Source of the DNA: Pristiophorus japonicus
Taxonomy: Eukaryota
NCBI RefSeq assembly: GCF_044704955.1
Contig: NC_091979.1
Span: 319,424,001-319,488,000, forward strand
DNA: 64,000 nucleotides
Direction of reading: 5' to 3'
Program-made: the position numbers and the translations under genes
Notes under the pieces: model-generated
Databases searched by the model: none
Told to the model about the DNA's origin: nothing
Seen by the model: the letters and a program-made list of their open reading frames with translations, nothing else
Part shown: positions 1 to 56,978 of the stretch, piece by piece
Position numbering within the stretch: the first letter of the stretch is position 1
How the letters are laid out: the number at the start of each line of letters is the position of its first letter

Positions 1-1406
1 ACCTGATTCTGACCGCAAGCGACCTACGTTTGTCTTCACTAATCTTTTTCCTCCTCACATATCTATAGAAGCTTTTGCAGTCATGTTTTATGTTTCCAGC
101 AAGCCTCCTCTCATACTCTATTTTCCCCACCCTGATTAAACACTTTGTCCTCCTCTGCTGAATTCTAAATTTCTCCCAGTCCTCAGGTTTGCTGCTTTTT
201 CTGGCCAATTGATATGCCAATTCCTTGGATTTAACACTATCCCTAATTTCCCTTGTTGAGCCACCTTCCCTGTTTTATTTTTACTCCTGTGATGTACAAT
301 TGTTGAAGTTCATCCATGTGATATTTAAATGTTTGCCATTGCCTATCCACCGTCAACCCTTTAAGTATCTTTCGCCAGTCTATTCTAGACAATTCACGTC
401 TTATACCATCGAAGTTACCTTTCCTTAAGTTCAGGACCCTCGTCTCTGAATTAACTGTGTCACTCTGCATCTTAATAAAGAATTCTATCATATTATGGTC
501 ACTCTTCCCCAAGAGGCCTCGCACAACAAGATTGCTAATTAGTCCTTTCTTGGTACACATCAGCCAATCTTGGATGGCCAGCCCTCTAGTTGGTTCCTCG
601 ACATATTGGTCTAGAAATCCATCCCTAATACACTCCAGGAAATCCTCCTCCATCGTACTGCAACCAGTTTGGTTAAACCAATTTATATGTAGATTAAAGT
701 CGCCCATGATAACTGCTGTACCTTTATTGCATGAATCCCTAATTTCTTGTTTGATGCTGTGTCCAACCTCACTACTACTGTTTGGTAGTCTGTACACAAC
801 TCCCACTCGTGTTTTCTGCCCTTTGGTATTCTGCAGCTCCACCCATACAGATTCCATATCCTCCAAACTAATGTCCTTCCTTACTATTTCTATTCTTCCT
901 ACCAGAGTGGACAATTTCACATTTCCCCACATTATACTCCATCTGCCACCTTCTTGCCCATTCACTAAACCTGTCTATAAACCTTCACAGTTTCTTTGAA
1001 TTGATCTTACAGCTTACTTTCCCACCTAGCTTTGTATTGTCAGCAAACTTGGATATACCACACCTAGTCCCCTCATCTAAGTAATTGATATAGAATGTAA
1101 ATAGCTGAAGTCCTTGCAGCAACCCTCTATTTACAAGTTGCCAAGCCGAAAATGACGCGTTTATTCCTACTTTCTGTTTTCTCTCCGTTAGTAGAATCCA
1201 AGCTAATATATTGTCCTATTCCCATGAGCCCTTATCTCATGTAACATCTTGTGTGGCACTTTATTGAATGCCTTTATAAAATACAAATATACTACATCCA
1301 CTGGTTTCCCCTTATCTACTCTGCTAATTGCACCCTCAAAAAATTCTAATAGATTTGTCCAACACAATTTCTCTTTCATAAAACTGTGTTGATTCTGCCA
1401 TATCAC
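1..1406 (-). mobile_element. Degenerate CR1-clade LINE ORF2 fragments (APE endonuclease and RT pieces)
   Basis: ORF 243-965 has APE motifs (GVVYRLPN, IMGDFN, SDHNMI). ORF 1203-1406 has an RT N-terminal piece (NQHSF..TNLLEFFE..VDVVYLYF.KAFNKVPH). Confidence 0.9.
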
Positions 1407-1410
1407 ATTA

Positions 1411-2865
1411 TGGGGTAAAATTCAGCACCTTAGCACCTCCCATTAGTTCAGTAATTGGCGTTAATGGGATGTGACAACATGAATGTGGGGCGAAGGGAAC
1501 CCCGCTCCACACATCAAATCCCCCCCACCGCAGTGTCGGTGCTAACAGTTATTGCTGGGAGCCTCAACACCAGATGGATCGTGATGTCAGTGAGTGTGCA
1601 ATGCTCACTGACCGCCCGATCTGCAAAACTGATTGTCGCCACTTACCTTAGTGCCAGAAGAAACAGCCAATGGTAGAGCTGGCATGGAGCACCAGGAAGT
1701 CTACTCCAGTGATGTTTATTTAAGGGATCATCAGCAGTGAGTTGCAGCCGTAGGTTCGTGGAGCTTCAGTGCTTTCTTCTCAGTTTCATATAATGCAACA
1801 GTCTCAATCCGTGATTTCAAGGTTATTGAGTATCAGGAGTGTTGTAGCAACTAAAAAGTGCTGCATTTATTCTTTAAAAAATCATACCACTACAATTGAC
1901 AACATTAATTGGGGCTGTGCTGGTAGTCGACCTCCCCCTCCAGGATCTACGGCAGAGGGAGCGGAGGCAGGGAGAAAGATTGGAACATGTGGCCAGAGGA
2001 AGGAGGAGGGCCATAAGTGCTCTCAACAAGAGGGGGTTGGGCGCCTCTTGCAAAATTGTGCTGGAGTTAGCCGAGGCGCTGCCACGATAGCCCCGTGCCC
2101 CACCAATAGCACCCCGGGCCGGGGCACAACCGCCGATGACCCCTTAGTGCCACACAATGACCCCGCGGCCATTTACATTGGCCAGTGCCCCGTAAGTATG
2201 CCATGAGCGGTGTCAGTGCCAGCCTCGTGGATCGCGAACCAGGCCGAACTCCGCTCACAAGGTGAAAGTTACAGGGGAGGTCGGGAGCGCCCTGTGCAGC
2301 CATATTACCTGTTTCACCGACTCACCGATCGGCTCGTTCTTTACTTCCCTGGCATGGCCCGAGCTGCCATTGTGCAGCTTGGCATTCTGTCTTGTGTGCC
2401 AGGCTGCAGCCTTGGCACCAGGCCGCCCTGGTGACCCAGTGGAGGCCATCAGAGGCCCAGCAAAGTGCGCCAGTGCTGCCAATCGTGTCCTAAGATGGGC
2501 AACAAATACTGGCCTTGTCAGCAATGCCCACATCCCAGGAACAAATAGAAAAAAGGTATCGCCCTGGTACCTGCCCCATCAGGAAGTGGAACTCGGCGAG
2601 ATTGCGCTCCACTTCCTGTGAGGGGCGGTAACCGCAATTCCGCGGCCGGGGCGGGACTTCTGTGCCGGGCGCAGGAAGTCCCGCCCCCAGCCGGTTAACA
2701 CCCCCAATCAGGGCACTGCGAAATTTCTTCCCCGAGGACTCCAATCATTTCTTTGAGCAGTGAGCACGTATTTTGCATGCAGTGTAAAACATTGGTGCAT
2801 ATTGCTCAATCTCCAACCTTTCTAATGACACCGCCCATTCCTGGGCGATAATGAAATTCTCGCCC
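1411..2865. mobile_element. GC-rich non-autonomous TIR element(s) (MITE-like, probably Harbinger-derived, possibly nested) abutting the IFIT copy 1 promoter
   Basis: Starts ggggtaaaattc at 1411 and ends gaaattctcgccc at about 2853-2865. A second terminus-like gaaatttcttcccc lies near 2720-2733. No credible ORF. Similarity to the copy 2 promoter starts right after 2865. Confidence 0.45.
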
Positions 2866-2875
2866 TTTGGTTCTT

Positions 2876-2954
2876 AGTTTCATTTTATAGGTTTAGCTTC
2901 GATTCACATTCAGGAAATGATTCATTGCGTACAATAACTGGACAGTATAAATAA
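2876..2954 (+). promoter_or_regulatory. IFIT copy 1 promoter: two ISRE-like sites, a GAS-like site and a TATA box
   Basis: AGTTTCATTTT (2876-2886), AGCTTCGATTC (2895-2905), TTCAGGAAA (about 2909-2917) and TATAAATA (2946-2953), about 110-185 nt upstream of the ATG. The block is homologous in all three gene copies. Confidence 0.75.
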
Positions 2955-3060
2955 GCTGGAAAACAACACACTAAACACTCTTCTCGATCAATTCACCATT
3001 GGAACGATTGTTGAAGCTGAAAAAGAAATTTTAACAACGCATTGTCCATCGATCAGCACG

Positions 3061-3065
3061 ATGAG
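3061..3065 (+). CDS. IFIT: IFIT copy 1 coding exon 1 (ATGAG, followed by donor GTAACG)
   Basis: cagcacgATGAG|gtaacg. IFIT genes typically have a tiny first coding exon. ATG AG joined to C at the acceptor ttgcag|C (5430) gives M-S-N-T-Q-K in frame. The intron spans 3066-5429. Confidence 0.85.
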
Positions 3066-3423
3066 GTAACGGTCATTGGAATTCCTCCTTTATTTAAATT
3101 TACGTGTAGACTATCGAACAAGCAACTAGTTTTCAGAAATAAAGTAGCTTACATTACAAAGCAGTTGAAATGCAGAGAGCTGGGATTAGTGGCTCACAGT
3201 GAGACACACAGATAAGGGAACACTGCTGCACCAAGACTGGTGATAGTCAGTAAACATGAGGCAAAAGGCAGACCTGTTCATAGGATTATAACTCAAACAA
3301 CAATTTAAATTATTTTGGACTTGGCTCTGTTGAAAGTACAAAGTTAAACTTGAATATTATACTGTCGTGGAAAGACGTATTCTGTAAGTGCCCTCAGGTC
3401 ATATCCAGAGTTTGAAGAAAGAA

Positions 3424-3435
3424 AGTTTCACTTTG
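3424..3435 (+). promoter_or_regulatory. Intronic ISRE/IRF-like site, conserved in all three copies
   Basis: AGTTTCACTTTG, one mismatch to AGTTTCNNTTTC. Also present at 27959-27970 and 49725-49736. Confidence 0.45.
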
Positions 3436-3879
3436 TGTTCCATGGGAATCTAGAAGGGATCTACTAATGTAAAATAGTGATTTCCAGCACTTTCATATAT
3501 CCAAACTAAAGCAACCTGAACTATAAAGCAAAGGGAGAGTACAGCATGGACTGGGATGGGGGGATGGACACAGCATGAAATGCAGGAGGAGAGTGCCAGC
3601 TTAAAGTGTGTAGGAGAAGGAAAAGTGCTGACTTACATTGAGAATGGGGGCGGGGGAGAAGAGTGCTGACATGAACTGGGGGAAAGGACAGGTGCAGCAG
3701 TTTGAACGGAGCAGCAAAGGGAGGAAAGCCACCATGAACTGGGGCAGGGGTAAGAATGACAGCTTGGATTGTGGGGGGAGGGAGACGAGAGCCAACAGGA
3801 ACAAGAGGCAGGCGGAGTAGAGTGCAAGGAGAAGCTGGGATGGCTGGGGGATGAAGTGTATCAACGTGAGTTTAACAGC

Positions 3880-4310
3880 AAGGAAGAAAGAATTTGTATT
3901 GATGTAACACCTTATCACACCTCTCAGAAATGTCCCAAAGTGCTTCACATTCAGTGAATTATGTTGCAGTGCAGTCACTGTTGTTTTGTCAGGAAATGTG
4001 ACAACTCAGTTTGCACAACAACAACAACTGGCATTTATATAGCACCTTTAACCTAGGAAAACATCCCAAGGTGCTTCACAGCAACGTAATCAGACAACAA
4101 TGGACACTGAGGCAAAGAAGGGGATGGTTAGAGGGATGACAAAAGCTTAGTCAAAGAGATAGGAGATTGTAAAGGAGGAGAGTGAGGTGGAGAGGTTCAG
4201 CGAGGGAATTCCAGAGTATCGGGCCTGTCTGGGCTGATGGCTCGGCCACCATCAGTGGGTGAAGTGGGAGAAGGACACGAGCCCGAGTTAGAGGAACACA
4301 GAATTCACGG
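3880..4310 (-). mobile_element. SINE/L2-type 3' end fragments in the IFIT intron
   Basis: caacaacaacaactggcatttatatagcacc is the reverse complement of an L2-like tail (GGTGCTATATAAATG..(GTT)n). Shared by all three introns. Confidence 0.5.
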
Positions 4311-4504
4311 ATAATGCCATAGAATCTATGAGGTCCACTTGATCCACTGGAATAGGCAGAGGCTGCCTTGGTTTAACATCACACCTGGAGGATGGCATGG
4401 TGGAAGATTTTCAGCAGGGTAAGAGTCAGTTCATGAAACATGGTCTTTCAGAATGCTGATATCTTTGTGTTGGGCCTTCTTTTCTGCTTTAAGGATGGGA
4501 TTAG

Positions 4505-4890
4505 AGAGGGTTACATAGGATACACAGCACAGAAACCGGCCATTCAGCCCAGCCAGTCCATGCTGGTTTATGCTCCACTCGAGCCTCCTCCTGTCTTTCC
4601 TCAGCTAATTCTATCTGCATAACCCTCTAATCCCTTCTCCCTCATATGCTTATCTAGTCTCCCCTGAAATGCATCTATACTATTTGCTTCAACCACTCCA
4701 TATGGTAGTGAGTTCCACATTCTCACCGCTCTCTGGGTAAAGAAGCTTCTTTTGAATTCCCTATTTGATTTCTTGGTGTCTGTCTTACACTGATGGCCTC
4801 TAGTTTTGCTCCTCCTCAGAGTGGAAACACTCTCTCTGTATCGACTCTATCATAACCTTTCATAATTTTAAAGACTTCTAGGTTCTCCTT
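4505..4890 (-). mobile_element. CR1 3' fragment in the intron, shared by copies 1 and 2 and absent from copy 3
   Basis: Reverse complement of CR1 C-terminal sequence (..agcttctttacccagagagcggtgagaatgtggaactc..). A homologue lies at about 29040-29420. Confidence 0.65.
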
Positions 4891-5429
4891 CCGCATGTTG
4901 GGGTGGAGAATGACCTGCTCACAGACAGCAGGGTCCCTGTGGAGGACCAGGTTGATGATCTGTTTAGTGGAGAGTTACCTGGACTGCCAATGTGAGAGGG
5001 AGAGTGTTTTAGAATTAGCTCTGACCTTTTTAGTGAGGAACTCCCATTTCAGAATGGAATGCATGAATGAGAAGGAGATGTAATGGGTGAACCAACAGGC
5101 AGACTGAGTACTTCAACCAATGTTCCTGTTCATATCATTGGGAGTGGAGGTGTTTGAGGTGATGCTGTACATTGCGTGAGAAGATTAAATGTCCATGAGC
5201 TGGTACATCAGCCAGCATGAAGGAGACCAGTGTAAGTACAGCTGAGATTTGCAGTCATCCCTTTTCCTTTTGCAGTGGTTTTTGCAGAGGTCACCTTTGT
5301 GTGACCAGAGATTTCATGGTCAGTGGGTCCAGGAGTCGGGAGAAGGCTTTAGTTAAAGAAACCGGAGAGAGGGGAGGGGGTGACACAGCCAGTCTGAGAT
5401 GGGTTTTGATGAATTTTGTTCTCTTGCAG

Positions 5430-6945
5430 CAACACACAGAAGGATTTGTTGAAAGTGAAGCTCGATTGGCTTCAATGTCACTTCACATGGGGCCCACAGA
5501 AGGAAAACATTGACTTGGACAACATGAAGTCTAGATTGCAAGATTCAATACAGGCTGGTGTGAAATATCAGGCCAGGTCTTACAACCACCTCGCTTTTGT
5601 AAACTGTCTGCAAGGCAACTGTGAAGAGGCAATTAAAAACTTAAAGGAAGCTGAAAAGATTCTGAGGGAGAACCATGAACATGAATTTGAAAGAAGAAGC
5701 ATCATCACCTATGGAAACTATGCCTGGGTATATTATCACATGGGCCAACTGACAGAGGCCCAGTCCTACCTCGACAAGCTGGAGATGATCTGTAAACAAT
5801 TTACTGATGGCTCTCGGTATACAGCACTGATACCTGAAGTATACGGGGAGAAGGGTTGGTCACTGTTGACTTCTGCTGATCAATACTATGAAGAGGCAAA
5901 GGAATGTTTTGAGAAGGCTCTGGAGGAAGATCCTGATGACACTGAATGGAACGTTGGCTATGCGACTGCTCTGTTCCGTCTGGAAGGGTTTTCTCGTACC
6001 CCAGAGAGTGGTGACCGCAGCCAATCAGTGAAGCAGTTGCGACGTGTGCTGGAACTTGATCCAGATGACTCTGTAGCCATGGTGCTGTTGGCTCTAAAAC
6101 TACAAGAGTTCAATCAAAAGGAGGAAGCACTGAAATTAGTTGAACAAGCATTGCAGAAGTCCCCTGATCTTCCATATGTAACTCGTTATGCAGCAAAATT
6201 TTACAGAGCAAAAGGAGATGTGGAAAAAGCTGTGGAGCTGTTGAAGAAAGCATTCGAAATTACCCCAAACTCTACCTTTTTACACCACCAAATAGGTCAG
6301 TGTTACAAAAAAAAACTATATCGACTGATCAAATATCCAGGCAGCAAAGACCCTTGCAATCCTGCTTTTCAACAGAAAGCTGACTTAATCAATAAATGCA
6401 AGTACCATTTTGAAAAGGCATTTGAGCCCCGCCCATTAACATCTATTAAGCCACAACTGGATTTTGCAAAAATCTGTTCATTAAATGAAGAATTTTTTGA
6501 AGCAGAGGCGATCTACAGCAATCTACTGAAATTAGAAAATATTCGCCAAGAAAATAAGCAGCAAATATGTTTAGCGGTCGGATTATTTGAACTGCACCAG
6601 AAAAGATCTGAATCAAATGCCGTCACCCATTTTCTGGAAGGAGTGAAAGTCAAATATGACTCAATAGAACGGAGAAGGTGTCACGAAAACTTGGAGAAGA
6701 TAGCAGACAGGCGACTTTGCATAAATTCAAGAGACAGCAAAGCCCTTGGTGTTCTTGGGTTACTGCACCAGCTGGATGGGAAGAATTGTAAAGCTATTGA
6801 ATGCTTTGAAAAGGCCCTGGAGTTTGATTGTCACAATGAAGAATATCTAAGTGCTCTCGCTGAATTACGCCTTTCTATCCAGACAACTCTCTCGTTCCCA
6901 GCTAAAACTAAACATATTTTTGAAAGATGCATTAATACTCCCTGA
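5430..6945 (+). CDS. IFIT: IFIT family protein copy 1, exon 2 (IFIT1/IFIT5-like, 506 aa spliced, C-terminally extended)
   Basis: Diagnostic IFIT motifs LQCHFTW, GNYAWVYYHMG, GWSLL..YYEEAKECFEKAL, YVTRYAAKFY and HHQIG, plus TPR repeats. Polypyrimidine tract and AG acceptor at 5428-5429. Confidence 0.96.
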
Positions 6946-7282: not shown

Positions 7283-8207
7283 GGGCCCGATTTTAACTCC
7301 AGATGGGTTTTGGGTGGGTGAGCGGCGAGGGGAATGGGAAACTCACCTGTTGCTGCAGATATCGGGCCCGGGGTATTTTAAATCCCGAACTTCATTATCG
7401 TGCGGCCAGACCACTTCCCGGCCACAGGGCGTGCAGGCAGGTGCGGTGAAGGTGGTTCTGGGAGGGTCTCGGGGATGGAATGGGGGATGTGGGGAGTCCG
7501 GGGCAGGGGAGCCCCAAACTTTCATTTTGGGGCCTGGCGGGGCATTCCTGCACAAAGGAAAGTCAAACACTTACACCTTGACATCCTGATTCTCCTCAGA
7601 GCTGCTTCGGCCTGTTGGAAAAGCTGCACCGGCTTCCCCCGCCCAGACCAGAGTTAACGGCGTAGTCAGGGCCCGATGATGTCACCACACCCCGTGTGTG
7701 ATGTCACCACACCCCGGTCCGTGTATGATGTCACCACATCCCGGTCCGTGTGTGATGTCACCAGACCCCGGTCCGTGTGTGATGTCACCAGACCCGGTCC
7801 GTGTGTGATGTCACCACACCCCGGTCCGTGTGTGATGTCACCACACCCCGGTCCGTGTGTGATGTCACCACACCCCGGTGCGTGTGTGATGTCACCACAC
7901 CCCGGTCCGTGTGTGATGTCACCAGACCCCGGTCCGTGTGTGATGTCACCACACCCCGGTCCATGTGTGATGGCACCACACCCCGGTCCGTGTGTGATGT
8001 CACCAGACCCCGGTCCGTGTGTGATGTCACCACACCCCGGTCCATGTGTGATGTCACCACACCCCGGTCTGTGTGTGATGTCACCAGACCCAGGTCCATG
8101 TGCGATGTCACCACACCCCAGTCCATTATTGTCAATGATGATCCCACCACTTTTGACGAGTGGCTTAGTCCAATTTCTGCCAAGTGGGCAGGTTTAAAAT
8201 CGCCCCC
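7283..8207. mobile_element. MITE with 14-bp imperfect TIRs in the putative 3' UTR of copy 1
   Basis: Left gggcccgattttaa (7283-7296) matches the reverse complement of right ttaaaatcgccccc (8194-8207) at 12/14. Flanks are cat and aat. Confidence 0.65.
7675..8120. repeat. 27-bp minisatellite, about 16 units
   Basis: Unit GTGTGTGATGTCACCACACCCCGGTCC. The ORF track shows a matching 9-aa periodicity. Confidence 0.95.
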
Positions 8208-17979: not shown

Positions 17980-20900
17980 TGTCATGTATCTCACACTACT
18001 GTACATAACTGTATCTTACCATGCTATACATGACTGTAACTAGATATGACCTGTAACCACAAGCATACCTTACCACCAGGGGTGCACTTGCAGGAGACAC
18101 TGCATACCTGTTCCACACAGGTATATAAAGGCAGGTCTCAGGCAAGTGTGGCACTCGAGAGCTGTGAAATAAAGGTGCAGGTCCAGAGTGACCTTGACTT
18201 CAGCATTGCCTTGTGTAAGTCTGTACTGCAGGGTCAGGACTTTACAGTGGCGACGAGTTACGGGATCACAGAATCCACAGAATGGCTACCAACGGCTCAG
18301 ATGAGAAATACAATGCCGGAGACAATTGGGAGGACTTTATAGAAAGACTCCAGCAAAGCTTTGTAACCAAAGACGATGAGGCAGACAAGAGAAGAGCCCA
18401 TCTCTTGACCAGCTGTGGCTCGAAAACATACGCCTTAATGAAGGACCTGCTGGCACCCGAGAAACCAGCAAGCAAGTCGTTTGAGGAGTTGAGCACACTG
18501 GTGAGAGACCACCTGAAGCCAGTGAGCAGCCTACACATGGCCAGACACAGGTTCTACAACTACAGACGCTGTGTACAGAGCATACCCGACTTTGTGGCGG
18601 AACTTCGGAGGCTGGCTAGTTTATGTGAGTTCTCCGATGAACTAAGGAGAGAAGTACCGAGAGACTTTTTTATTGAAGGAATAGGCCATGCAGGCATATT
18701 CCGAAAGCTTATAGAGACCAAGAACTTGACTTTAGAGGCAGCAGCACTGGTCGCACAGACATTCTTGGCAGGAGAAGAAGAAACGAGGTTGATCTATACT
18801 GCGGGTACGACAACTAACGAAACATCAGAACAAGGGGTTCAAAGTGTGAATCAAGCCACTACCCCCACACACAGACAAAGACAGGAGAGCAGGTCTTCAA
18901 CAGCAGGCAGTGGCGCCAGAAGCCATCAAGGTCCACATGAACGGCCGTTCACACCTCATCAACCCACAATGCGAGCAATCAACTACAGACTGAGAGAAGC
19001 TCAAGAGAGACCAGCCAGACGCAGCTTATCCTTCGGAAACAATGGAAGCGGTCTGTGCTGGAGATGTGGGGGAAGGCACTCAACAGGGGGTGTCGATTTC
19101 AGCATGCTGTTTGCAGAAACTGCAACTATACAGGGCATCTGGCTCGCATGTGCAGAAAAACAACAGCTCGGCTGATATACGAATCGGATGGGTCGGAAAG
19201 CGGACCAGAAGACGGTGGGGACAGTGCCCGGGATGCTGGGGTACAGCGGGTCAACACGATCAATGTCCACTGTTCTTACAACAAGGCGCCTCCAATAATG
19301 ATGAGGGTCCTTCTCAACGGGATACCCATCAACATGGAACTGGACACGGGAGCTAGTCAATCTCTCATGAGCGTCCAACAATTTGAACAGCTGTGGCCGC
19401 AAAAGCAACAGACCAAAACTCACAAGGATCGACACCAAACTAAGGACCTATACCAAAGAAATCGTCCCAATCCTTGGCAGCACCATGCTCTCAGTCACAC
19501 ACAAAGGGACGGTGAACCAACTTCCCCTGTGGATTGTGCCCGGAGATCTCCCAGCACTGTTGGGGAGAAGCTGGCTGGCAAAACTAAATTGAAAATGGGA
19601 TGATGTTTACGCCATGTCGTCAGAGGAACGGACCTCCTGCTCAACAGTTTTAAGTCGTTTTGAACATCTCTTTCAGCCAGTTGTGGGCACCTTCAAAGGG
19701 GCTAAAGTTAAAATCTACAACACACAGGATGCCAGACCGGTCCATCACAAGGCTAGAGCTGTGCCTTCTGTGATGAGGGAAAAGATTGAACACGAACTGG
19801 ACCGGCTTCTGCGGGAAGGCATTATCTAACCCGTGGAATTTAGCGACTGGGCAAGTCACATCATTCCCGTCATGAAGCCTGATGGATCCATACGAATCTG
19901 TGGGGATTACAAGTCTACCATAAACAGAGTCTCCCTACAGGACCAATACCCGCTGCCCAGAGTGGAGGACCTATTTGCCACATTGGCTGGAGGAAAACTT
20001 CTCTCGAAACTAGATCTCACATCTGCGTATATGACACAAGAACTGACCGAAGAGTCTAAGCTACTCACCACCATCAACACACATCGAGGCCTTTTTGTGT
20101 ACAATCAATGCCCATTCGGCATCAGGTTGGCAGCTGCTATATTCCAGCGCAACATGGAGAGTCTGCCCAAGTCCATCCCGGGGACGGTTGTGTTTCAAGA
20201 TGACATACTCATCACGGGCAGGGACACCGACTCCCATCTCTGCAATTTGGAGCAAGTACCAAGTCGATTGGACCGGGTAGGCCTAAGAGTTAAGAAATCC
20301 AAGTGTCTGTTTCTCGCGCCCGAGGTTGAATTTTTGGGCAGAAGGACTCCGCCCAACAGAATCCAAAACCGAAGCAATTCGTCTGGCACCCAGGCCCCGG
20401 AACTGCACGCCTTTCTCGGGCGACTCAATTACTTTGGGAGCTTTATGCAGAACTTGAGCTGGCTGCTGGAGCCTCTCCACGTGCTACTCAGAAAGGGGTG
20501 CGATTGGTTTTGGGGAAATGCCCAAGAATGTGCCTTCAATAAGGCATGCGTCAGCATATGGGGTCAGGTGCGTTTTACAGCATGTCAATGATGCAGGTAA
20601 ATTACAACCCATTGCTTATGCCTCCAGGTCACTTTCGCGGGCGGAGCGCGGGTATAGTATGGTTGAGAAGGAGGCGCTCGCGTGCGTGTATGGTGTCAAA
20701 AAGATGCACCAATATCTTTTCGGGGCCAAGTTCGCATTAGAAACTGACCACAAACCCCTCACATCCCTGCTATCCGAGTGCAAAGCAATAAATGCCAATG
20801 CCTCGGCGTGTATTCAGCGGTGGGCACTCATGCTGGCGTCCTACGACTATACCATAAGGCACAGACCAGGCACAGACACGCGCTTAGCAGGCTACTCCTG

Positions 20901-22441
20901 GTGACCACGGAAGGGTCTGACGAACAGGACTGTGAGATGGTCATGGCAATCAATGCCTTTGAATCCACAGGTTCGCCCATGACGGCTCGTCAAATCAGAG
21001 CCTGGATGACCAGCAACCCCACGTTATCCTTAGTCAAAAGATGTGTTTTAACTGGTGACTGGGCAGAGGCTCGTGATGCCTGCCCCGAGGAGATCAAACC
21101 TTTCCATAGGCGCATGCATGAACTATCACTCCAGGCAGACTGCCTGATGTGGGGCAGCCGAGTAGTTATGCCCTTGCGAGGCAGAGAGGTGTTTGTCCGG
21201 GAGCTCCACCGCGAGCACCCGGGGATCGTCCTTATGAAGGCCATAGCCAGATCCCACGTCTGGTGGCCTGGCATTGACGCGGACTTGGAGCTCTGCGTCC
21301 GGCGGTGCACCATTTGTGCCCAACTCAGTAATGCACCCAGGGAGGCCCCCCTAAGCCCCTGGCCCTGGCCCACCAAACCGTGGTCGCGGGTGCATGTAGA
21401 CTATGCGGGCCCATTCATGGGCAAAATGTTCCTCGTAGTCATCGATGCATTTTCAAAGTGGATCGAGTGCACCGTTTTAAACTCGAGCACCATCTCTACC
21501 ACTGTGGAGAGCCTTAGAACCATGTTTGCAATGCCCGTAATTCCTGACATATTGGTCAGTGATAATGGTCCGTGCTTCACCAGCGCAGAATTTCAAGATT
21601 TTATAGGTGACCACGGCATAAATCATGTTAAGATGGCATTGTTCAAGCTGGCCTCCAATGGCCAGGTGGAACAAGCAGTACAAATCGTTAAACAAGGCAT
21701 GCTAAAAATCCAAGGTCCCATGCTGCAGAGCTGCCTGTCACGACTGCTACTGGCATACAGATCTCGTCCGCATTCGTTGACTGGGGTTCCCCCCGCGCAA
21801 CTGTTGATGAACTGGACCTTAAAGACTAGGCTCTCGTTAATCCTCCCAGACATACATGAAATTGTTGAGGCAAAGTGCCGGAAGCTAACTGAGTACCATG
21901 AACGAAATTTGAGGGGGAGGTGGAATGAGATAGGGGACAAAGTGTTTGTGCTAATCTATGGCAGGGGTCCCAAATTGCTTGCAGGGACAGAAACAGGCAA
22001 GGAAGGAAACAGGCTACTAGTTGTACAAATGGACAATGGCCAAACCTGCTGGGGGCATGTCGACCAAGTAAAAAGTAGATTCACCAACAACACTGCAGAA
22101 CCAGAGGCAGACTACAATGTGGAACTCACACCACACCTGGTGGACAGACAGAGGGAACAACCTGAGAAAAGGGCAGTCTCAACAGACAGCCCAGGCGAGA
22201 TACCAGCAGTCACACCGAAAGAAAAACAGGCACCAAGGCAAACAACTGACCCACAACTAAGACGCTCCATGCGAGAGCGCAGACCACCTGAGAGACTAAA
22301 TCTATAAAGCCAATAAGACCTTGGGGGAGGGTGTGGCAAGTGTGGCACTCGAGAGCTGTGAAATAAAGGTGCAGGTCCAGAGTGACCTTGACTTCAGCAT
22401 GTGCCTTGTTTAAGTCTGTACTGCAGGGTCAGGACGTTACA
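17980..22441 (+). mobile_element. Ty3/Gypsy LTR retrotransposon, near full length and degenerate
   Basis: 5' LTR TG..CA at 17980-18246, PBS TGGCGACGAG at 18248-18257, gag with two CCHC knuckles, protease LDTGA, RT FQDD, RNase H ETDHKPL, integrase HHCC/HVDYAGP/SDNG, PPT at about 22323-22333 and a truncated 3' LTR at 22334-22441. Flanks tttcc/cttcc give a 5-bp TSD with one mismatch. Confidence 0.95.
18282..22307 (+). pseudogene. Gypsy gag-pol, broken by frameshifts and stops
   Basis: Consecutive ORF pieces 18282-19175, 19055-19603, 19614-19829, 19833-20591, 20518-20904 and 20778-22307 run in PR-RT-RH-IN order. Confidence 0.92.
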
Positions 22442-23004: not shown

Positions 23005-23705
23005 CCCTGGGTTCCGAGAGTTCGGGAGGCCTGAGAGTTCGGGAGGTCTGAGAGTTCAGGAGGCCTGAGAATTCGGGAGGTCTGAGTGTTCAGGAGGTCT
23101 GAGAGTTCGGGAGGTCTGAGAGTTCAGGAGGCCTGAGTGTTCAGGAGGTCTGAGTGTTCGGGAGGTCTGAGTGTTCGGGAGGCCTGAGTGTTCAGGAGGT
23201 CTGAGAGTTCAGGAGGCCTGAGTGTTCAGGAGGTCTGAGAGTTCGGGAGGTCTGAGTGTTCAGGAGGTCTGAGAGTTCAGGAGGTCTGAGTGTTCGGGAG
23301 GCCTGAGTGTTCAGGAGGTCTGAGAGTTCAGGAGGTCTGAGTGTTCGGGAGGTCTGAGTGTTCAGGAGGTCTGAGTGTTCAGGAGGTCTGAGAGTTCAGG
23401 AGGCCTGAGTGTTCAGGAGGTCTGAGAGTTCGGGAGGTCTGAGTGTTCGGGAGGCCTGAGAATTCGGGAGGTCTGAGAGTTATGGAGGCCTGAGTGTTCA
23501 GGAGGTCTGAGAGTTCGGGAGGTCTGAGAGTTCGGGAGGTCTGAGAGTTCGGGAGGTCTGAGAGTTCGGGAGGTCTGAGAGTTCAGGAGGCCTGAGTGTT
23601 CGGGAGGTCTGAGAGATCCAGAGGTCCGAGAGTTCGGGAGGTCTGAGAGTTCTGGGGATCCAAGAGTTTGGGAGGTCCCGAGGTCCGAGAGTTTGGGAGG
23701 TCAGG
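23005..23705. repeat. 17-bp minisatellite, about 35-40 units, at the 5' end of a CR1
   Basis: Unit CTGAG(A/T)GTTC(A/G)GGAGG(T/C). It degenerates at the right end into the CR1 5' UTR. Confidence 0.95.
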
Positions 23706-23709
23706 AGTC

Positions 23710-24570
23710 CGAGGAGCAGAAAGCCCGGAGGTCGGCGAGGAGTTAACTTCTGGCGATGACCTCACAGTCCTCGTCCGGGCAGGTAAATGATTGGCTGTTT
23801 GATTGATAAGTATCTTTCTTTTTCTCTTTCTCTTTCTCTTTTATAATCAGATAAGTCTAATTAGAGGGATGACAGGGCAGCTCAGTCCCATGGACTTTAC
23901 ATCCTGCAGCATGTGGGAAGTCCTGGATGCTTTGTACGGCCTAGACGACCACGTGCGCAGGAGGTGTCTCCAGCTTCAACTACTCCAGCTCCGCGTTTCG
24001 AGCTTGAGTGGCGGCTGGAGTCAATACGGTGCATCCGCGAGGCTGAGAGCTACGTGGATAGCACGTTTCAGGAGGTGGTCACCCTGCAGCTTAAAAGTCT
24101 GCAGGTAACGGTGAAGTGGGTGAACACCAGACGGAGGAAGAATGCTAAACAGGTTGTACAGGATTCCCCCCGAGTCCACCTCGCTTTCCAACCGATATTC
24201 TCTTCTGAGCATCGGTGAGAGCGATGGTGCCTCTGGGGAGTGCAGCCAGAGCCAAGTCCAAGGCACCATGGGTGGTTCAGCTGCACAGCGGGGAGGGACA
24301 AAGAATAAAAGAGCTGTCGTGATAGGGGATTCAATAGTTAGGGGAATAGAGGCCTTTCTGTGGCCGTAGGCTTGACTCCAGGATAGTATGGTGCCTCCCT
24401 GGTGCCATGATCAAGGATGTCACAGAGCAGACGCAGGGCATTCTGGGGGGAGAGAGTCAATAGCTAGAGGTTGTGGTCCATATCGGGACCAATGACATAG
24501 GTAGAACGAGGGATGAGGTCCTGCAGGCAGAATTTAGGGCGCTAGGAGAAAAATTAAAGGGTAGGACCTC
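23710..24570 (+). mobile_element. CR1 5' UTR and ORF1 remnant
   Basis: MTGQLSP..SCSMWE..DDHV..C.QLQ, VVIGDSIVRG, CLPGA and VVVHIGTND. Confidence 0.85.
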
Positions 24571-26770: not shown

Positions 26771-27416
26771 CTGGGAGCAAGTGGGCTGACCAGAAAACTT
26801 GAAATCAGAAACAAGGCCCTCTCCATTTGCCGCACCACTCCGTCACCCACCAAATTTAAACAACTCGAAAAAGCTCCAAACGGTTCCACAAACTTACACG
26901 GAGCCAGTGGAAATTAATCAGCAACTGACCTGAGAGTGGTTGATGATCCCTTTAAATATCACTGGTCGGGCGTCCTTTCAGCTGCTGAACCCTGTTCAGC
27001 TGTGCGAGGGTAACACAGGGAGTTTCCTGCACCATTGAGGATGAAAATAGCAGTTCTGGTGTCAAACTATCATTGCACGCTGACTGAGGTCACGATGTTC
27101 CCAATCTATATAATCTGGCACACGCTCCAAGCGCCGACACTAACGTCCTCAGAAAGATGGTGTCCAGCACGGCCTGCACCAGAATTGTGCGAGCACGGCG
27201 CGGATGCTGTTTTGACCCAAAAAGGCGCCTGTAGCGCCCAAACAACAGGTATTACGCAATCAAATTTTTAGTCCCAGGTGTCTGTTTAGTACCTCCAGGC
27301 GTTCAAATTGTGGTAATCACCAATTAGGACTAAAATTGTATGCTAAATCCAGACTTTCAAACAGGCGGGTCTTATTAGCACTGCTCCATTTCGCACCTGT
27401 TTTCAACCATTTGGTT

Positions 27417-27495
27417 CTTTGTTACATTTTATAGGTTTAGTTTCTATTCACATTCAGACAATGATTTAAGCAATAACTGACTGAACAGGATAAAC
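27417..27495 (+). promoter_or_regulatory. IFIT copy 2 promoter: one ISRE-like site retained, the upstream ISRE and TATA degenerate
   Basis: AGTTTCTATTC at 27439-27449. The upstream site reads TGTTACATTTT and the TATA position reads GGATAAAC. Confidence 0.6.
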
Positions 27496-27598
27496 GAGCT
27501 GGAAAACAATACATCAACACACTTCTCGATCAACTCTCCATTGGAAGTACAGTTGGAGCTGAAAAGGGAATTCAACGCATTGTCCATCGATCAGCACT

Positions 27599-27603
27599 AT
27601 GAG
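27599..27603 (+). CDS. IFIT: IFIT copy 2 coding exon 1 (ATGAG|GTAACG)
   Basis: Homologous to 3061-3065. The intron spans 27604-29895. Confidence 0.85.
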
Positions 27604-29895
27604 GTAACGGTCATTGGAATTCCTCCTTTATTTAAATTTACGTGGAGACTATCGAAGGAGCTAGTTTTCAGAAATAAAGTAGCTTACATTACAAAGCAGT
27701 TGAAATGCAGAGAGCTGGGATTAGTGGCTCACAGTGAGACACACAGATAAGGGAACACTGCTGCACCAAGACTGGTGATAGTCAGTAAACATGAGGCAAA
27801 AGGCAGACCTGTTCTTAGGATTATAACTCAAACAACAATTTACATTATTTTTGACTCGGCTTTGTTGAAAGTACAAAGTTAAACTTGAATATTATACTGT
27901 GGTGGAAAGGCGTATTCTGTAAGTGCCCTCAGGTCATATCCAGAGTTTGAAGAAAGAAAGTTTCACTTTGTGTTCCATGGGAATCTAGAAGGGATCTACT
28001 AATGTAAAATAGTGATTTCCAGCACTTTCATATATCCATACTAAAGCAACCTGAACTATAAAGCAAAGGGAGAGTACAGCATGGACTGTGATGGGGGGAT
28101 GGACACAGCACGAAATGCAGGAGGAGAGTGCCAGCTTAAAGTGTGTAGGAGAAGGAAAAGTGCTGACTTACATTGAGAATGTGGGCGGGGGAGAAGAGTG
28201 CTGACATGAACTGGGGGAAAGGACAGGTGCAGCAGTTTGAACGGAGCAGCAAAGGGAGGAAAGCCACCATGAACTGGGGCAGGGGTAAGAATGACAGCTT
28301 GGATTGTGGGGGGAGGGAGACGAGTGCCAACAGGAACAAGAGGCCGACGGAGTAGAGTGCAAGGAGAAGCTGGGATGACTGGGGGATGAAGTGCATCGAC
28401 GTGAATTTAACAGCAAGGAAGAAAGAATTTGTATTGATGTAACACATTATCACACCTCTTAGAAATGCCCCAAAGTGCTTCACATTCAGTGAATTATTTT
28501 GCAGTGCAGTCACTGTTGTTTTGTCGGGAAATGCGACAATTCAGTTTGCAGAACAACAATAACTGGCAATTATATAGCACTTTTCACCGAGTAAAACATC
28601 CCACAGTGCTTCACAGCAACGTAATCAGACAACAATGGACACCGAGGCAAAGAAGGGGACGGTTAGAGGGATGACAAAAGCTTAGTCAAAGAGATAGGAG
28701 ATTGTAAAGGAGGAGAGTGAGGTGGAGAGGTTCAGCGAGGGAATTCCAGAGTATCGGGCCTGTCTGGTCTGATGGCTCGGCCACCATCAGTGGGTGAAGT
28801 GGGAGAAGGACACGAGCCCGAGTTAGAGTAACACAGAATTCACGGATAATGCCATAGAATCTATGAGGTCCACTTGATCCACTGGAATAGGCAGAGGCTG
28901 CCTTGGTTTAACATCACACCTGGAGGATGGCATGGTGGAAGATTTTCAGCAGGGTAAGAGTCAGTTCATGAAACATGGTCTTTCAGAATGCTGATATCTT
29001 TGTGTTGGGCCTTTTCTGCTTTAAGGATGAGATTGGAGAGTGTTACATAGGATAGACAGCACAGAAACCGGCCATTCAGCCCAACCAGTCCATGTTGGTT
29101 TATGCTCCACTCGAGCCTCCTCCTGTCTTTCCTCAGCTAATTCTATCTGCATAACCCTCTAATCCCTTCTCCCTCATTTGCTTATCTAGTCTCCCCTTAA
29201 ATGCATCGATACTATTTACTTCAACCACTCCCTATGGTCGCGAGTTCCACATTCTCACCGCTCTCTGGGTAAAGAAGTTTCTTTTGTATTCCCTATTTGA
29301 TTTCTTGGTGTCTATCTTACACCTGATGGCCTCTAGTTTTGCTCCTCCTCACAGTGGAAACACTCTCTCTGTGTCGACTCTATCATAAACTTTCATAATG
29401 TGAAAGACCTCTCGGTTCTCCTTCCGCATGTTGGGGTGGGGAATGACCTGCTCACAGACAGCAGGGTCCCTGTGGAGGACCAGGTTGATGATCTGTTTAG
29501 TGGAGAGTTACCTGGACTGCCAATGTGAGAGGGAGAGTGTTTTAGAATTAGCTCTGACCTTTTTAGTGAGGAACTCCCATTTCAGAATGGAATGCATGAA
29601 TGAAAAGGAGTGGAGGTGTTTGAGGCGATGCTGCACATTGAGCGAGAAGACTAAATGTCCAGGAGCTGGTACATCAGCGAGCATGAAGGAGACCAGTGTG
29701 AGTACAGCTGAGATTTGCAGTCATACCTTTTCCTTTTGCAGTCGTTTTTGCAGAGGTCACCTTTGTGTGACCAGAGATTTCATGGTTAGTGGATCCAGGA
29801 GTCGGGAGAAGGCTTTAGTTAAAGAAACCGGAGAGAGGGGAGGGGGTGACACAGCCAGTCTGAGACGGGTTTTGATGAATTTTGTTCTCTTGCAG

Positions 29896-31348
29896 CAACA
29901 CACAGAAGGATTTGTTGAAAGTGAAGCTCGATCAGCTTCAATGTCACTTCACGTGGGGCCCACAGAAAGAAAACATTGACTTGGACAACATGAAGTATAG
30001 ATTGCAAGATTCAATACAGGCTGGTGTGAAATATCAGGCCAGGTCTTACAACCACCTCACTTTTGTAAACTGTCTGCAAGGCAACTGTGAAGAGGCAATT
30101 AAAAACTTAAAGGAAGCTGAAAAGATTCTGAGGGAGAACCATGAACATGAATTTGAAAGAAGAAGCATCATCACCTATGGAAACTATGCCTGGGTATATT
30201 ATCACATGGGCCAACTGACAGAGGCCCAGTCCTACCTCGACAAGCTGGAGATGATCTGTAAACAATTTACTGATGGCTCTCGGTATACAGCACTGATACC
30301 TGAAGTATACGGGGAGAAGGGTTGGTCACTGTTGAATTCTCCTAGTCAATACTATGAAGAGGCAAAGGAATGTTTTGAGAAGGCTCTGGAGGAAGATCCT
30401 GATGACACTGAATGGAACGTTGGCTATGCGACTGCTCTGTTCCGTCTGGAAGGGATTTCTGGTACCCCAGAGAGTGGTGACCGCAGCCAATCAGTGAAGC
30501 AGTTGCGACGTGTGCTGGAACTTGATCCAGATGACTCTGTAACCATGGTGCTGTTGGCTCTAAAACTACAAGAGTTCAATCAAAAGGAGGAAGCACTGAA
30601 ATTAGTTGAACAAGCATTGCAGAAGTCCCCTGATCTTCCATATGTAACTCGTTATGCAGCAAAGTTTTACAGAAGAGAAGGAGATGTGGAAAAAGCTGTG
30701 GAGCTATTGAAGAAAGCATTAGAAATTAGCACAAACTCTACCTTCATACACCACCAAATAGGTCTGTGTTACAGAAAAAAACTATTTCAACTGATCAAAT
30801 ATCCAGGCAGCAAAGACCTTCGCAATGCTGCTTTTCAACAGAAAACTGAGTTGATCAAACTATGCAAGTACCATTTTGAAAAGGCATTTGAGCCCCGCCC
30901 ATTAACATTTATTTTTGCACAACTGGATTTTGCAGGAATCTGTTCATTAAATGGAGAATATCTCAAAGCAGAGGAGATTTACAGTAATCTACTGAAATTA
31001 GAGGATTTTCATCCTGATAATAAGCAGGCAGTATATGCGCAGTTTGGGTTATATGAACTGCATCACAAAAGATCTGAATCAAATGCCATCAGCTATTTTC
31101 TGGAAGGACTTAAAATCCAACGTGACACAGTGGAATGGCAATTGTGTCGCGAAAACTTGAGAAAGATTGCAACAAAACAAATTGACAGGAATCCCAGAGA
31201 CAGCAAGGCCTTTGGTGTTCTTGGGTTACTGCACCAGCTGGATGGGGAGAAGTGTGAAGCTATTGAGTGCTTTGAAAAGGCTTTGGAGTTTGATTGTGAC
31301 AATGAAGAATATCTAAGTGCTCTTTGTGAATTACGCCTTTCTATCTAA
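29896..31348 (+). CDS. IFIT: IFIT family protein copy 2, exon 2 (485 aa spliced)
   Basis: Intact ORF with all IFIT motifs, acceptor ttgcag|C and a TAA stop. Confidence 0.96.
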
Positions 31349-35799: not shown

Positions 35800-38600
35800 T
35801 GTATCCAACTAGTGCTAACCACACAACAGGGGAGCTAGCGGGCACCAAGTTTGTCGGATGGAGAACTGGAGGTCTTGCTGGAGGAGGTGGAAAGGAGGCG
35901 AGATGTTCTGTATCCACAGTGGGGCCGGAGGCCCTCCAGACACACGGTCAAAAGGAAGTGGAAGCAGATAGTCGTGGTGGTCAGTGCCCGGAGTCAAGCC
36001 CCGAGGACCTGGATACAGTGCCGCAAGAAGTTCAATGACCTCACATGAGTGGCCAAGGTCAGTGAATGCATCTTCAAATGCCATGTCTTCCCAACTGCAA
36101 CACGAGCCACACCCACTGACCGCAGCCAATCAGTGAAGCGGTTACAACGTGTGCTGGAACTTGATCCAGATGACTCTGTAGCCATGGTGATGTTGACTCT
36201 AAAACTACAAGAGTTCAATCAAAAGGAGGAAGCACTGAAATTAGTTGAACAAGCATTGCAGAAGTCCCCTGATCTTCCATATGTAACTCGTTACGCAGCA
36301 AAATTTTACAGAAGAGAAGGAGATGTGGAAAAAGCTGTGGAGCTATTGAAGAAAGCATTAGAAATTAGCCCAAACTCAACCTTCATACACCACCAAATAG
36401 GTCTGTGTTACAGAAAAAAACTATTTCAACTGATCAAATATCCAGGCAGCAAAGACCCTCGCAATGCTGCTTTTCAACAGAAAGCTGAGTTGATCAAACT
36501 ATGCAAGTACCATTTTGAAAAGGCATTTGAGCCCCGCCCATTAACATTTATTTGTGCACAACTGGATTTTGCAGAAATCTGTTCATTAAATGGAGAATAT
36601 CTCAAAGCAGAGGAGATTTACAGTAATCTACTGAAATTAGATGATTTTCATCCTGATAATAAGCAGGCAGTATATGCGCAGTTTGGGTTATATGAACTGC
36701 ATCACAAAAGATCTGAATCAAATGCCATCAGCTATTTTCTGGAAGGACTTAAAATCCAACGTGACACAGTGGAATGGCAATTGTGTCGCGAAAACTTGAG
36801 AAAGATTGCAACAAAACAAATTGACAGGAATCCCAGAGACAGCAAGGCCTTTGGTGTTCTTGGGTTACTGCACCAGCTGGATGGGGAGAAGTGTGAAGCT
36901 ATTGAGTGCTTTGAAAAGGCCTTGGAGTTTGATTGTGACAATGAAGAATATCTAAGTGCTCTTTGTGAATTACGCCTTTTTATCTAAATCAACGACTCTC
37001 CCAGCTAAAACTAAACACAGCGGGTAGAGTTTCTGCTTTGGGTGCAAATTGCACTTGAAGTTACGCTGGTTAGCTTACAGTTTAAGTTTCCACTAAATGC
37101 ATTTGCTTAATTACAAACGTAAAATCTTCCAAGAACCAGTGCAGTCAGTCAGTGTAACAGAATATAATCAGTTATTTTTTGCATTAAAAATATTCATTGA
37201 TATATTTAAGAGTGGCAATTGGTGCAGCTTTATTGATACAGCTGAAAATGGATGTAACCTGCAAAATTAAATATTTTTAGTCAGTCTTTCAGCTGTGCTT
37301 TACCTGATTTCAGGTGATGTAAATGGCTTTAAAATCTATACTGAACCAGTTATAAGTTTTATTGTTGTACACTAGTCAGACTTTTAATAATTTAAATATT
37401 TTTAAGATGTAAAACCTATTAAATTGTGCCTACTAGTGCCTGGGCACCTCAGAAAACCAGCTCAATTTGAAAACACCCACTGCTCAATTCACCACATCCC
37501 CATCACTCACCTACCAACAATCTCTCCAACAACCAACAGGCCTCATACCTCACATCCGTAGCTTCACTTCGCCCTCACACACTGAACTCCGACATCTCAC
37601 AGCTTGCACACTCAGCCAGCTATTGAATCATGACAGCCACATCAGCCAAACAGTTTGCACGAAAGTCACTGACACGCTTCCCTCTCTCTCACTGGACAAG
37701 GTGGCATACAATCAAATGCAGCAGGTGCTAACTGGAGGGGACAGGCGCGTTTGCATGTCCTAACACCCGTGGAGGAGGTGGTGCCGGCCTTTATTGAGAT
37801 GCCCAAAGTTGAGCAAGTGGCCAGCGGCAGGGCTAAAACCATCCCATTTTCCTCTCATCCCACAATCTGATTTACAAGCTGCAGATGGTGTAAGCATGTA
37901 CCTCTTACTTTCCCCTCACTTCCTCGCACCACAACTTATTCTTGTGCCTTTTTCCTTTCAGATACACAAGTGTTGCAATCTGCCCAGGCAGTGGAGGAAC
38001 AGCAAGAAGAGAGTGACCGTCACTTGATTTCACACTCACAGCCACCGGCTCAGATACTGACACTGCTATGTTAGAGGATAGATTAGAGGCGGGATCTGCA
38101 CGTGGTGAGACACCGGGCACGTGTGGGTTGCAGCCAGGGCAGGTGGCAAGGATAGCACAGGTGCCAGCTCACCGGAGGGCGAGGGCACAGACAGGTTTCG
38201 TTGCCGAGGACTCAGATACGGAGTTCGATGGGGCAGCCGACAGAGGAACGCTGATGGGTTTGCACAATGAAGGCTTGGTGCATTGGCAGGCCTGCCAGAA
38301 AGCCTGTGGTCAATGTCACGGAGCATGGAGGAGTCTTCACCAGCTTGGCACAGGGCTTTGAGCAGAGTTTGGAGCCCATCCTTTCCGGCATGGAAGTGGT
38401 GGCAAACTCTGTTCGCACACTTGTGGATCCAACCATGATGCAGCATCTGATGGCCAGTGTCACCACTTCCATTGCAGCAGAAGCAGCCATCCATCCTCTG
38501 AACTCTGCAGCCAACTAACCCGCCTCTGATCGGGCCCACAAAGACCCCAGAACATCCTGACTATACTCCCCCCGCATCCCGTCTCAGGTGATAGCCTCCG
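35800..38600 (+). mobile_element. Harbinger Myb/SANT gene remnant interrupted by an IFIT insert
   Basis: SDGELEVLLEEVERRRDVL..W.QI..VVSA...RTWIQCRKKFNDL, with a donor at 36058. The uninterrupted paralogue is at about 60590-61990. Confidence 0.8.
36119..37472 (+). pseudogene. IFIT: 5'-truncated IFIT copy (C-terminal ~290 codons plus ~490 nt of 3' UTR) flanked by a 10-bp TSD
   Basis: Nearly identical to 56110-57463. ACACCCACTG at 36109-36118 and 37473-37482. No promoter or exon 1. The frame is open to TAA at 36987. Confidence 0.9.
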
Positions 38601-49262: not shown

Positions 49263-49361
49263 GAGCTGAAAAACAACACTCCAAACATTCGGTCAACTCA
49301 CCATTGGAAGGACAGTTGGAGCTGACGAAAAAATTCAACACATTGTCCATCGATCAGCATT

Positions 49362-55525: not shown

Positions 55526-56978
55526 CAACACACAGAAGGATTTGTTGAAAGTGAGTCTCGATTGGCTTCAATGTCACTTCACATGGGGCCCACAGAAAGA
55601 AAACATTGACTTGGACGACATGAAGTATAGATTGCAAGATTCAATACAGGCTGGTGTGAAATATCAGGCCAGGTCTTACAACCACCTCGCTTTTGTAAAC
55701 TGTCTGCAAGGCAACTGTGAAGAGGCAATTCAAAACTTAAAGGAAGCTGAAAAGATTCTGAGGGAGAACCATGAACATGAATTTGAAAGAAGAAGCATCA
55801 TCACCTATGGAAACTATGCCTGGGTATATTATCACATGGGCCAACTGACAGAGGCCCAGTCCTACCTCGACAAGCTGGAGATGATCTGTAAACAATTTAC
55901 TGATGGCTCTCGGTATACAGCACTGATACCTGAAGTATACGGGGAGAAGGGTTGGTCACTGTTGAAATCTTCCAGGAAATATTATGAAGAGGCAAAGGAA
56001 TGTTTTGAGAAGGCTCTGGAGGAAGATCCTGATGACACTGAATGGAACGTTGGCTATGCGACTGTTCTGTTCCGTCTGGAAGGGTTTTCTAGTACCCCAG
56101 AGAGTGGTGACCGCAGCCAATCAGTGAAGCGGTTACAACGTGTGCTGGAACTTGATCCAGATGACTCTGTAGCCATGGTAATGTTGGCTCTAAAACTACA
56201 AGAGTTCAATCAAAAGGAGGAAGCACTGAAATTAGTTGAACAAGCATTGCAGAAGTCCCCTGATCTTCCATATGTAACTCGTTACGCAGCAAAATTTTAC
56301 AGAAGAGAAGGAAATGTGGAAAAAGCTGTGGAGCTATTGAAGAAAGCATTAGAAATTAGCCCAAACTCAACCTTCATACACCACCAAATAGGTCTGTGTT
56401 ACAGAAAAAAACTATTTCAACTGATCAAATATCCAGGCAGCAAAGACCCTCGCAATGCTGCTTTTCAACAGAAAGCTGAGTTGATCAAACTATGCAAGTA
56501 CCATTTTGAAAAGGCATTTGAGCCCCGCCCATTAACATTTATTTGTGCACAACTGGATTTTGCAGAAATCTGTTCATTAAATGGAGAATATCTCAAAGCA
56601 GAGGAGATTTACAGTAATCTACTGAAATTAGATGATTTTCATCCTGATAATAAGCAGGCAGTATATGCGCAGTTTGGGTTATATGAAATGCATCACAAAA
56701 GATCTGAATCAAATGCCATCAGCTATTTTCTGGAAGGACTTAAAATCCAACGTGATACAGTGGAATGGCAATTGTGTCGCGAAAACTTGAGAAAGATTGC
56801 AACAAAACAAATTGACAGGAATCCCAGAGACAGCAAGGCCTTTGGTGTTCTTGGGTTACTGCACCAGCTGGATGGGGAGAAGTGTGAAGCTATTGAGTGC
56901 TTTGAAAAGGCCTTGGAGTTTGATTGTGACAATGAAGAATATCTAAGTGCTCTTTGTGAATTACGCCTTTCTATCTAA
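55526..56978 (+). CDS. IFIT: IFIT family protein copy 3, exon 2 (485 aa spliced)
   Basis: Intact ORF with IFIT motifs, acceptor ttgcag|C and a TAA stop. Confidence 0.96.

Follow-up and report, generated by a model that had tools for sequence, protein, structure and literature searches.

In the mammalian genes IFIT1 and IFIT1B, the 5' part of the coding sequence is kept alike by repeated gene conversion, and the C-terminal third is subfamily-specific (Daugherty et al. 2016, PMC4887208; this paper and the others are cited for their available text). Short divergence peaks under conversion are an established signature, described for the human red/green opsins and for RHD/RHCE (reviewed in PMC3924837). 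Lineage-specific expansion of IFIT genes is already known, and 8-10 IFIT genes have been listed for the elephant shark (8) and bony fish (PMC3688568). In human IFIT5, K150 hydrogen-bonds the RNA triphosphate and the K150M mutation raises the KD from 13 to 204 nM; Y156F is listed as neutral (PMC9677429). The IFIT1 counterpart of K150 is K151, and the IFIT1 mutation W147L abolishes cap0 binding (PMC3950709). IFIT1 residues Y157 and R187 hinder 2'-O-methylated RNA (PMC7762956), and positively selected sites of mammalian IFIT1 have been placed at V170, L193 (TPR4 loop) and L366 (PMC12543323).

The window analysed here is a stretch of 64,000 nucleotides from the sawshark Pristiophorus japonicus (NC_091979.1, positions 319,424,001 to 319,488,000 of the forward strand). 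IFIT genes have a tiny first exon and one long coding exon, and the window copies fit this layout, with splicing deduced from the splice sites. The long coding exon (exon 2) occupies 5430..6945 in copy 1, where it is open to a stop and encodes a C-terminus 21 codons longer than in copies 2 and 3, 29896..31348 in copy 2 and 55526..56978 in copy 3, all on the plus strand. The likely coding end of exon 1 of copy 1 lies at 3061..3065 (plus strand; ATG AG, then a GT donor), its counterparts with the same ATG AG|GT lie at 27599 and 49362, and acceptors fall at 5430, 29896 and 55526; the splicing so predicted yields 485 amino acids for copy 3, which is the length of the database protein. Codons are numbered below from the stop-to-stop reading frame, and numbers in the spliced protein are 4 lower. 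A fourth IFIT copy, 5'-truncated, covers about codons 203-489 (36117..36987, plus strand), is 99.5% identical to copy 3 and is without the patch described below; within 36117-37474, this truncated copy abuts at its 5' end a sequence that recurs at about 60870-60907.

The window genes are members of the IFIT family, IFIT5/IFIT1-like, with no claim of one-to-one orthology to either protein. Over its whole length copy 3 matched human IFIT5 at E 8e-117 and IFIT1 at 2e-109, the best non-IFIT natural TPR protein reaching 1e-11; its AlphaFold model (pLDDT 89) had as top Foldseek matches IFIT5 (4HOR, TM 0.88) and IFIT1 (5UDI, TM 0.86), and the closest database protein, 98% identical, carries the label Pristiophorus. 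The identity given in an earlier note on the window is thus supported by full-length similarity and by fold. Duplicated promoter/exon-1 blocks were seen at 2863-5077, 27407-29610 and 49177-50597. Their ISRE-like text is most distinct at 49188-49197, and position 2946 has a TATA-like motif; the number of ISRE motifs was not above chance (7 against 3.6 expected, with 10 of 100 shuffles reaching 7). Broken gag/pol-like reading frames at 18219-22307 were recognised by eye as a putative LTR retroelement in intergenic DNA, and elsewhere in the window there are LINE-like fragments and minisatellites (7676-8126, 23013-23716, 33590-34924 and 59219-59705).

The earlier note had singled out six codons at which the three genes differ, and its codon strings and coordinates were exact for all three. 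Codons 153-158 read TSADQY in copy 1 (5869..5886, plus strand), NSPSQY in copy 2 (30335..30352, plus strand) and KSSRKY in copy 3 (55965..55982, plus strand). The first two belong to a lysine-less class, termed AQ, and the third, which has the K150/K151 equivalent, to a class termed RK; copy 2 carries its AQ patch on a copy-3-type C-terminal half and is a natural chimera. The near-identity claimed for the surroundings is complete over 231 nt to the left (codons 76-152, 5638..5868 in copy 1, plus strand, containing the invariant W147 and L150 equivalents) and 81 nt to the right (codons 159-185, 5887..5967, plus strand, beginning with the invariant Y157 equivalent), both identical in the three copies. 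Five of the six patch codons differ among the copies, four with an amino-acid change and codon 158 silently. The 18-nt patch holds 9 of the 28 bases of codons 6-250 that vary among the window copies, and no cluster comparable to it arose in any 18-nt window in 200,000 random placements of the variable bases, so the variation is denser than chance, a check that had been named beforehand. Copies 2 and 3 differ at 6 of 18 patch bases and at 6 of 432 bases in codons 346-489.

The gapless match of this segment to human IFIT1 was confirmed, and extends to IFIT5. In the ungapped alignment K153 of copy 3 corresponds to IFIT5 K150 and IFIT1 K151, W149 to W147 and Y159 to Y157; the alignment agrees that the first patch residue occupies the position of the triphosphate-binding lysine, kept among the three window copies in copy 3 only. 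The patch had been described as a helix, and the model of copy 3 places it instead at a turn between two helices, the first running to codon 152 and the second starting from codon 156, with the turn at 153-155. Equivalents of W147, L150, Y157 and R187 are the same in the three copies, as are the IFIT5 contacts K48, Y250, R253, Y254, K257, R260, H287 and Q288; at the positions of IFIT5 T37/IFIT1 R38, IFIT5 Q41 and IFIT1 Y218 all three copies have Arg, Ser and Val, respectively. By the contacts published in the available text, the lysine at residue 153 is the sole documented RNA contact that varies in the patch. Of the cap- and triphosphate-binding residues that the earlier note had listed for the segment, the K150/K151 position does vary, but the residues equivalent to W147 and Y157 do not change among the copies and fall beyond the variable codons, so nothing points to the patch altering cap stacking or 2'-O-methyl sensing. 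The patch is real, statistically strong and functionally well placed.

The three genes of the window had been taken for a small repertoire, and the repertoire proved to be large. A search of the sawshark's own genome gave 97 matches, which resolved into 90 IFIT loci (all fetched), 61 of them with an unbroken frame. On contig C3 the loci are arrayed over about 3.2 Mb (316.35-319.54 Mb) in both orientations; 11 further loci are on C5 (24.70-25.14 Mb) and one is on a small contig. The 61 intact loci comprise 53 of the main family and 8 (L072-L079) of a subfamily about 70% identical to it. Many loci are nearly identical to one another, and the 53 intact copies of the main family comprise just 45 distinct sequences, so the assembly may overcount copies. 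In sequencing run X6, from another study under the same organism label, there are contigs with the NSPSQY letters and with the KCG letters; an assembly artefact was rejected for the patch types since they recur in those contigs, a check that does not cover copy number. If the assembly is right, the sawshark array, with 61 open loci, far exceeds the 8-10 genes listed for the elephant shark and bony fish (PMC3688568, available text). Four short isolated fragments (L087-L090) cover about codons 103-174, are centred on the patch region and are 86% identical to copy 3. In-frame indels occur in the patch of L048/L049 (minus one codon) and L079 (plus two), and L043 also has an indel; a subfamily of rays (P0058, P0060, P0067, P0070, P0072, P0077 and P0086) has gained one residue in the patch.

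Among the 53 intact main-family copies the patch types were KSSRKY (17), SSAAQY (13), TSAAQY (6), TSADQY (5), NSPSQY (4), KCGRKY (3), TSPSQY (2), a form with a one-codon deletion (2) and TSASQY (1), and codons 153, 155 and 156 each have four amino acids. On C3, divergence between the 17 KSSRKY copies and the 20 intact AQ copies reached 45.9% within the patch, against 0.2% for codons 130-152 and 0.3% for codons 159-185. It was about 3% over more distant parts of the N-terminal half and 14% over codons 346-489; the classes are defined by the patch itself, and the informative part of this comparison is the flanks. Six differences in the exon are fixed between the two C3 classes, all inside the patch, and no RK/AQ hybrid patch was found among the 37 C3 copies. 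Diversity of the patch within classes was 0.65% for RK (17 copies) and 11.7% for AQ, the AQ flanks having about 0.5%. All four combinations of patch and C-terminal type are present in intact sawshark genes: copy 2 and L022 combine an AQ patch with a copy-3-type C-terminus, and L027/L028 combine KCGRKY with another type. A strict matching of patch and C-terminus is contradicted in the sawshark by these four combinations, and a linkage of the patch with D/N37 (IFIT5 E33/IFIT1 D34), seen in the three window copies, is lost in the array.

By tree-free minimal counts the patch has 4 silent and 12 replacement changes (pS 0.85, pN 0.90, pN/pS 1.06), and codons 76-152 on C3 have pS 0.05 and pN 0.07. 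Positive selection was sought as an excess of replacements and none was found in the patch by these counts; because silent and replacement divergence are both raised there, positive selection is not shown, and the high silent divergence is the mark of an old haplotype. On C3 no six-codon window has more replacements than the patch, which shares the first place. Changes within the AQ class are all replacements with no silent one, a proportion indistinguishable from the gene-wide 56 to 20 (codons 6-258). Other variable spots of the exon lie at codons 231-236, 266, 346 and 417-436, with five and four amino acids among the intact copies at codons 266 and 346, respectively.

The divergent sawshark subfamily L072-L079 has orthologues in other sharks, in which G is present at residue 155 in 8 of 9 readable rows (K/R-F-G-W-K/R-Y); none of 8 RK proteins that other sharks have in the main family carries G at 155. 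Between the subfamily and the main-family locus L015 there were no differences in 84 nt (codons 136-162), with silent differences at 0 of 26 sites in the tract and at 18 of 47, 19 of 50 and 33 of 74 outside it (about 40% outside codons 96-180). KCGRKY is present in eight main-family loci, three intact and five broken, and the simplest reading is that the CG patch was imported into the main family by a short conversion tract from the subfamily, which is about 30% divergent, this direction being the probable one. The converted tract shared by L072-L079 with the main family spans about codons 96-180, and the subfamily differs at several tunnel positions. Neutral conversion was simulated with 37 copies and tracts of 30-400 nt, without mismatch barrier or mutation; an intact island with clean flanks was obtained in 0 of 1,065 runs, of which few were for short tracts (27 and 65). 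Of the earlier proposal that selection preserves the patch against gene conversion and diversifies it, the first part held to the extent that the patch resists homogenisation beyond this simple neutral model, and recent diversification was not upheld.

The patch was compared across sharks and rays in the best 120 of 985 homologues. In this sample residue 153 was S in 50, K in 21, R in 19, T in 17, G in 6 and N in 5, the flanking helices were nearly invariant, and the patch ranked 75 of 484 windows by entropy. The KSSRKY patch of copy 3 is identical at 6 of 6 residues to Heterodontus P0005 and at 5 of 6 to Heptranchias P0006, against 2 of 6 to copy 1, with which copy 3 is identical at 79 of 79 residues over codons 96-152 and 159-180; the copy 1 patch matches Heptranchias P0014 at 5 of 6. 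The same island is present between Heptranchias paralogues (39/40, 16/17, 2/6 in the patch and 19/22) and between Heterodontus paralogues (33/40, 16/17, 0/6 and 20/22). Flanks were closer between paralogues than between orthologues, but not in every species, and the patch was closer between orthologues than between paralogues, the other species having been compared at the protein level only.

Trees were built from a set of 52 proteins chosen by hand, with the patch removed for the N-terminal tree. On the N-terminal tree paralogues clustered by species (SH-aLRT 96 for Heptranchias, 92 for Heterodontus and 86 for sawshark C3), except that the catshark and white shark RK genes formed a clade of their own, and on the C-terminal tree proteins clustered by patch class. 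In AU tests, whose groups were named after the trees had been seen, an RK clade was rejected on N-terminal columns (p 0.004) and was not rejected on C-terminal columns when two chimeras were included (p 0.175); species clades were rejected on C-terminal columns (p 0.003, 0.003 and 0.02). The homogenised N-terminal halves of the earlier note are thus borne out by the N-terminal tree and by AU tests. For 47 proteins from 12 species of sharks other than the sawshark, chosen after removal of rays, of database entries for the sawshark and of one protein lacking a name, the state of residue 153 (basic or small) required 10 changes on the N-terminal tree and 3 on the C-terminal tree; this column test is biased toward the N-terminal tree, and a leave-window-out version was used instead, in which the patch fitted the C-terminal tree best of 40 windows (+9; the other 39 had mean -1.7, sd 3.6 and maximum +5). 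Window 231-236 also fitted the C-terminal tree better (+5/+6).

Among distant IFITs, 72 of 146 representatives aligned over the site, with K or R in 49 of the 72 and several reading KxSRKY, so that RK is likely ancestral and AQ derived. The Heptranchias patch KFSRKY had been considered as a chimera, which was dropped because KFSRKY is common in distant IFITs. A third galeomorph subfamily has KSAAQY, a lysine with AQ; together with serine being the commonest residue at 153 (50 of the best 120), this makes the two classes a simplification. The shark superorders split over 200 million years ago, and since patch forms are common to species by subfamily, both forms would predate that split. The term hypervariable, in the sense of recent diversifying change, does not survive a lysine/non-lysine difference common to shark orders, a pN/pS of 1.06 and an RK form that varies by 0.65%; the patch is best read, from comparison of sequences, as an old divergence island rather than a recent hypervariable site.

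The analysis favours an account in which selection probably keeps lysine and lysine-less forms against conversion, the two being predicted to differ in how they bind RNA 5' ends. The N-terminal part would be homogenised by gene conversion and by unequal exchange, and tracts that overwrite the patch would fail to persist, being removed by selection, so that silent sites nearby would stay diverged too; recombination would shuffle the patch types with C-terminal halves. Judging from human mutants, RK copies (K..RK, net +3) would bind the 5' triphosphate or the triphosphate bridge in the manner of IFIT5 and IFIT1, and AQ copies (T/S/N..xQ, net 0 or -1) would lose the lysine contact, keep the other tunnel residues, and have weaker binding to triphosphate ends or a preference for a different end. 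Counting against the RNA-end reading, the patch is a turn that tolerates in-frame indels and is variable among all IFITs, it ranks only 75 of 484 by entropy and shows no surplus of replacements, and mammalian IFIT specificity has been mapped to the C-terminal third (PMC4887208, available text). The AQ class has a second, younger layer of amino-acid change, which may be adaptive or no more than tolerated.

The island could also perpetuate itself by a mismatch barrier without selection, if 9 mismatches in 18 nt stopped heteroduplex extension and tracts ended at the edges. That homogenisation reaches right to codons 152 and 159, that silent sites of the patch are diverged as much as replacement sites and that the C3 copies lack hybrid patches are all as such a barrier would have it, and the neutral simulation ran without one. 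Conversion has nevertheless crossed larger divergence, in the identical tract between L015 and the subfamily about 70% identical to it, in which the KCG patch moved along, and a barrier alone does not explain an RK motif conserved between shark orders and resembling distant IFITs, which makes this account unlikely. That selection keeps both forms for a role other than RNA-end choice (closing against the C-terminal subdomain, pairing with other IFITs or escape from a viral antagonist) is quite unlikely: the class of residue 153 tracks the C-terminal genealogy in other sharks, and positions 154-157 are absent from the RNA contacts named in the available literature, but the four patch and C-terminal combinations in intact sawshark genes mean that strict matching is not required, and the position of the first patch residue is, in IFIT5, a phosphate contact that has been tested (PMC9677429, available text). 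It is very unlikely that recent arms-race diversifying selection in this lineage was the main cause of the patch variants. The AQ diversity in the patch relative to its flanks, the four amino acids at each of three codons, the tie for top replacement window and the replacement differences among intact AQ copies would suit such selection; set against these, the principal RK/AQ difference predates the species, pN/pS is about 1, RK copies are nearly invariant and the within-AQ changes do not depart from the gene-wide proportion.

Returning to selection for different RNA-end binding, a far-reaching version, which is doubtful as a whole, would make the array a modular RNA-end sensor, in which a six-codon cassette switches the triphosphate contact on and off, has two ancient forms older than the split of the major shark orders, moves by short conversion even between subfamilies 30% divergent and is joined to different C-terminal halves. 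The outcome would be some 60 IFITs with separate specificities, among them a lysine-less class reading an RNA end that is not known for mammalian IFITs. Six codons in otherwise identical proteins are a candidate switch of RNA-end recognition, for which natural controls are at hand: copies 2 and 3 have the same flanks and almost all of the C-terminal half in common, and two patch residues separate L015 from copy 3. A lysine regarded as essential in human IFIT5 is missing from most sampled shark and ray IFITs, which raises the question of what these proteins bind.

The ingredients of this system are known, namely the homogenisation of IFIT1/IFIT1B and divergence peaks of the opsin type; their combination was not found in print, and no report of the shark IFIT patch or array was found in the main-text literature searched, which is incomplete. 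The shark proteins are predicted to share the fold of IFIT5 (4HOR, 4HOT) and IFIT1 (5UDI) (TM 0.86-0.88, structure-alignment identity 41% and 38%) and keep K48, W146/147, Y156/157, R186/187, Y250, R253, Y254, K257, R260, H287 and Q288 of IFIT5/IFIT1; unlike IFIT5 and IFIT1, most shark copies are without the K150/K151 lysine. As at the selected sites of mammalian IFIT1, rapid change adjoins the RNA tunnel, but there the selected sites are V170, L193 and L366 and not the K151 turn, and the shark patch has a pN/pS of 1.06 by tree-free counts. As in IFIT1/IFIT1B, the N-terminal part of the shark genes is homogenised, with divergence rising from about codon 259 onward; unlike that pair of genes, with specificity in the C-terminus, the sawshark has 61 loci with an open frame and, at the K150/K151 position, an island of six codons, which recombines with C-terminal types, and no island within the homogenised part is reported for IFIT1/IFIT1B in the available text of PMC4887208. 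As in the opsins and RHD/RHCE, a short, functionally placed region is closer between orthologues than between paralogues and its flanks are homogenised; the shark peak differs from these in being 18 nt long, in lying within one coding exon of genes of a large antiviral array and in having a function that is predicted.
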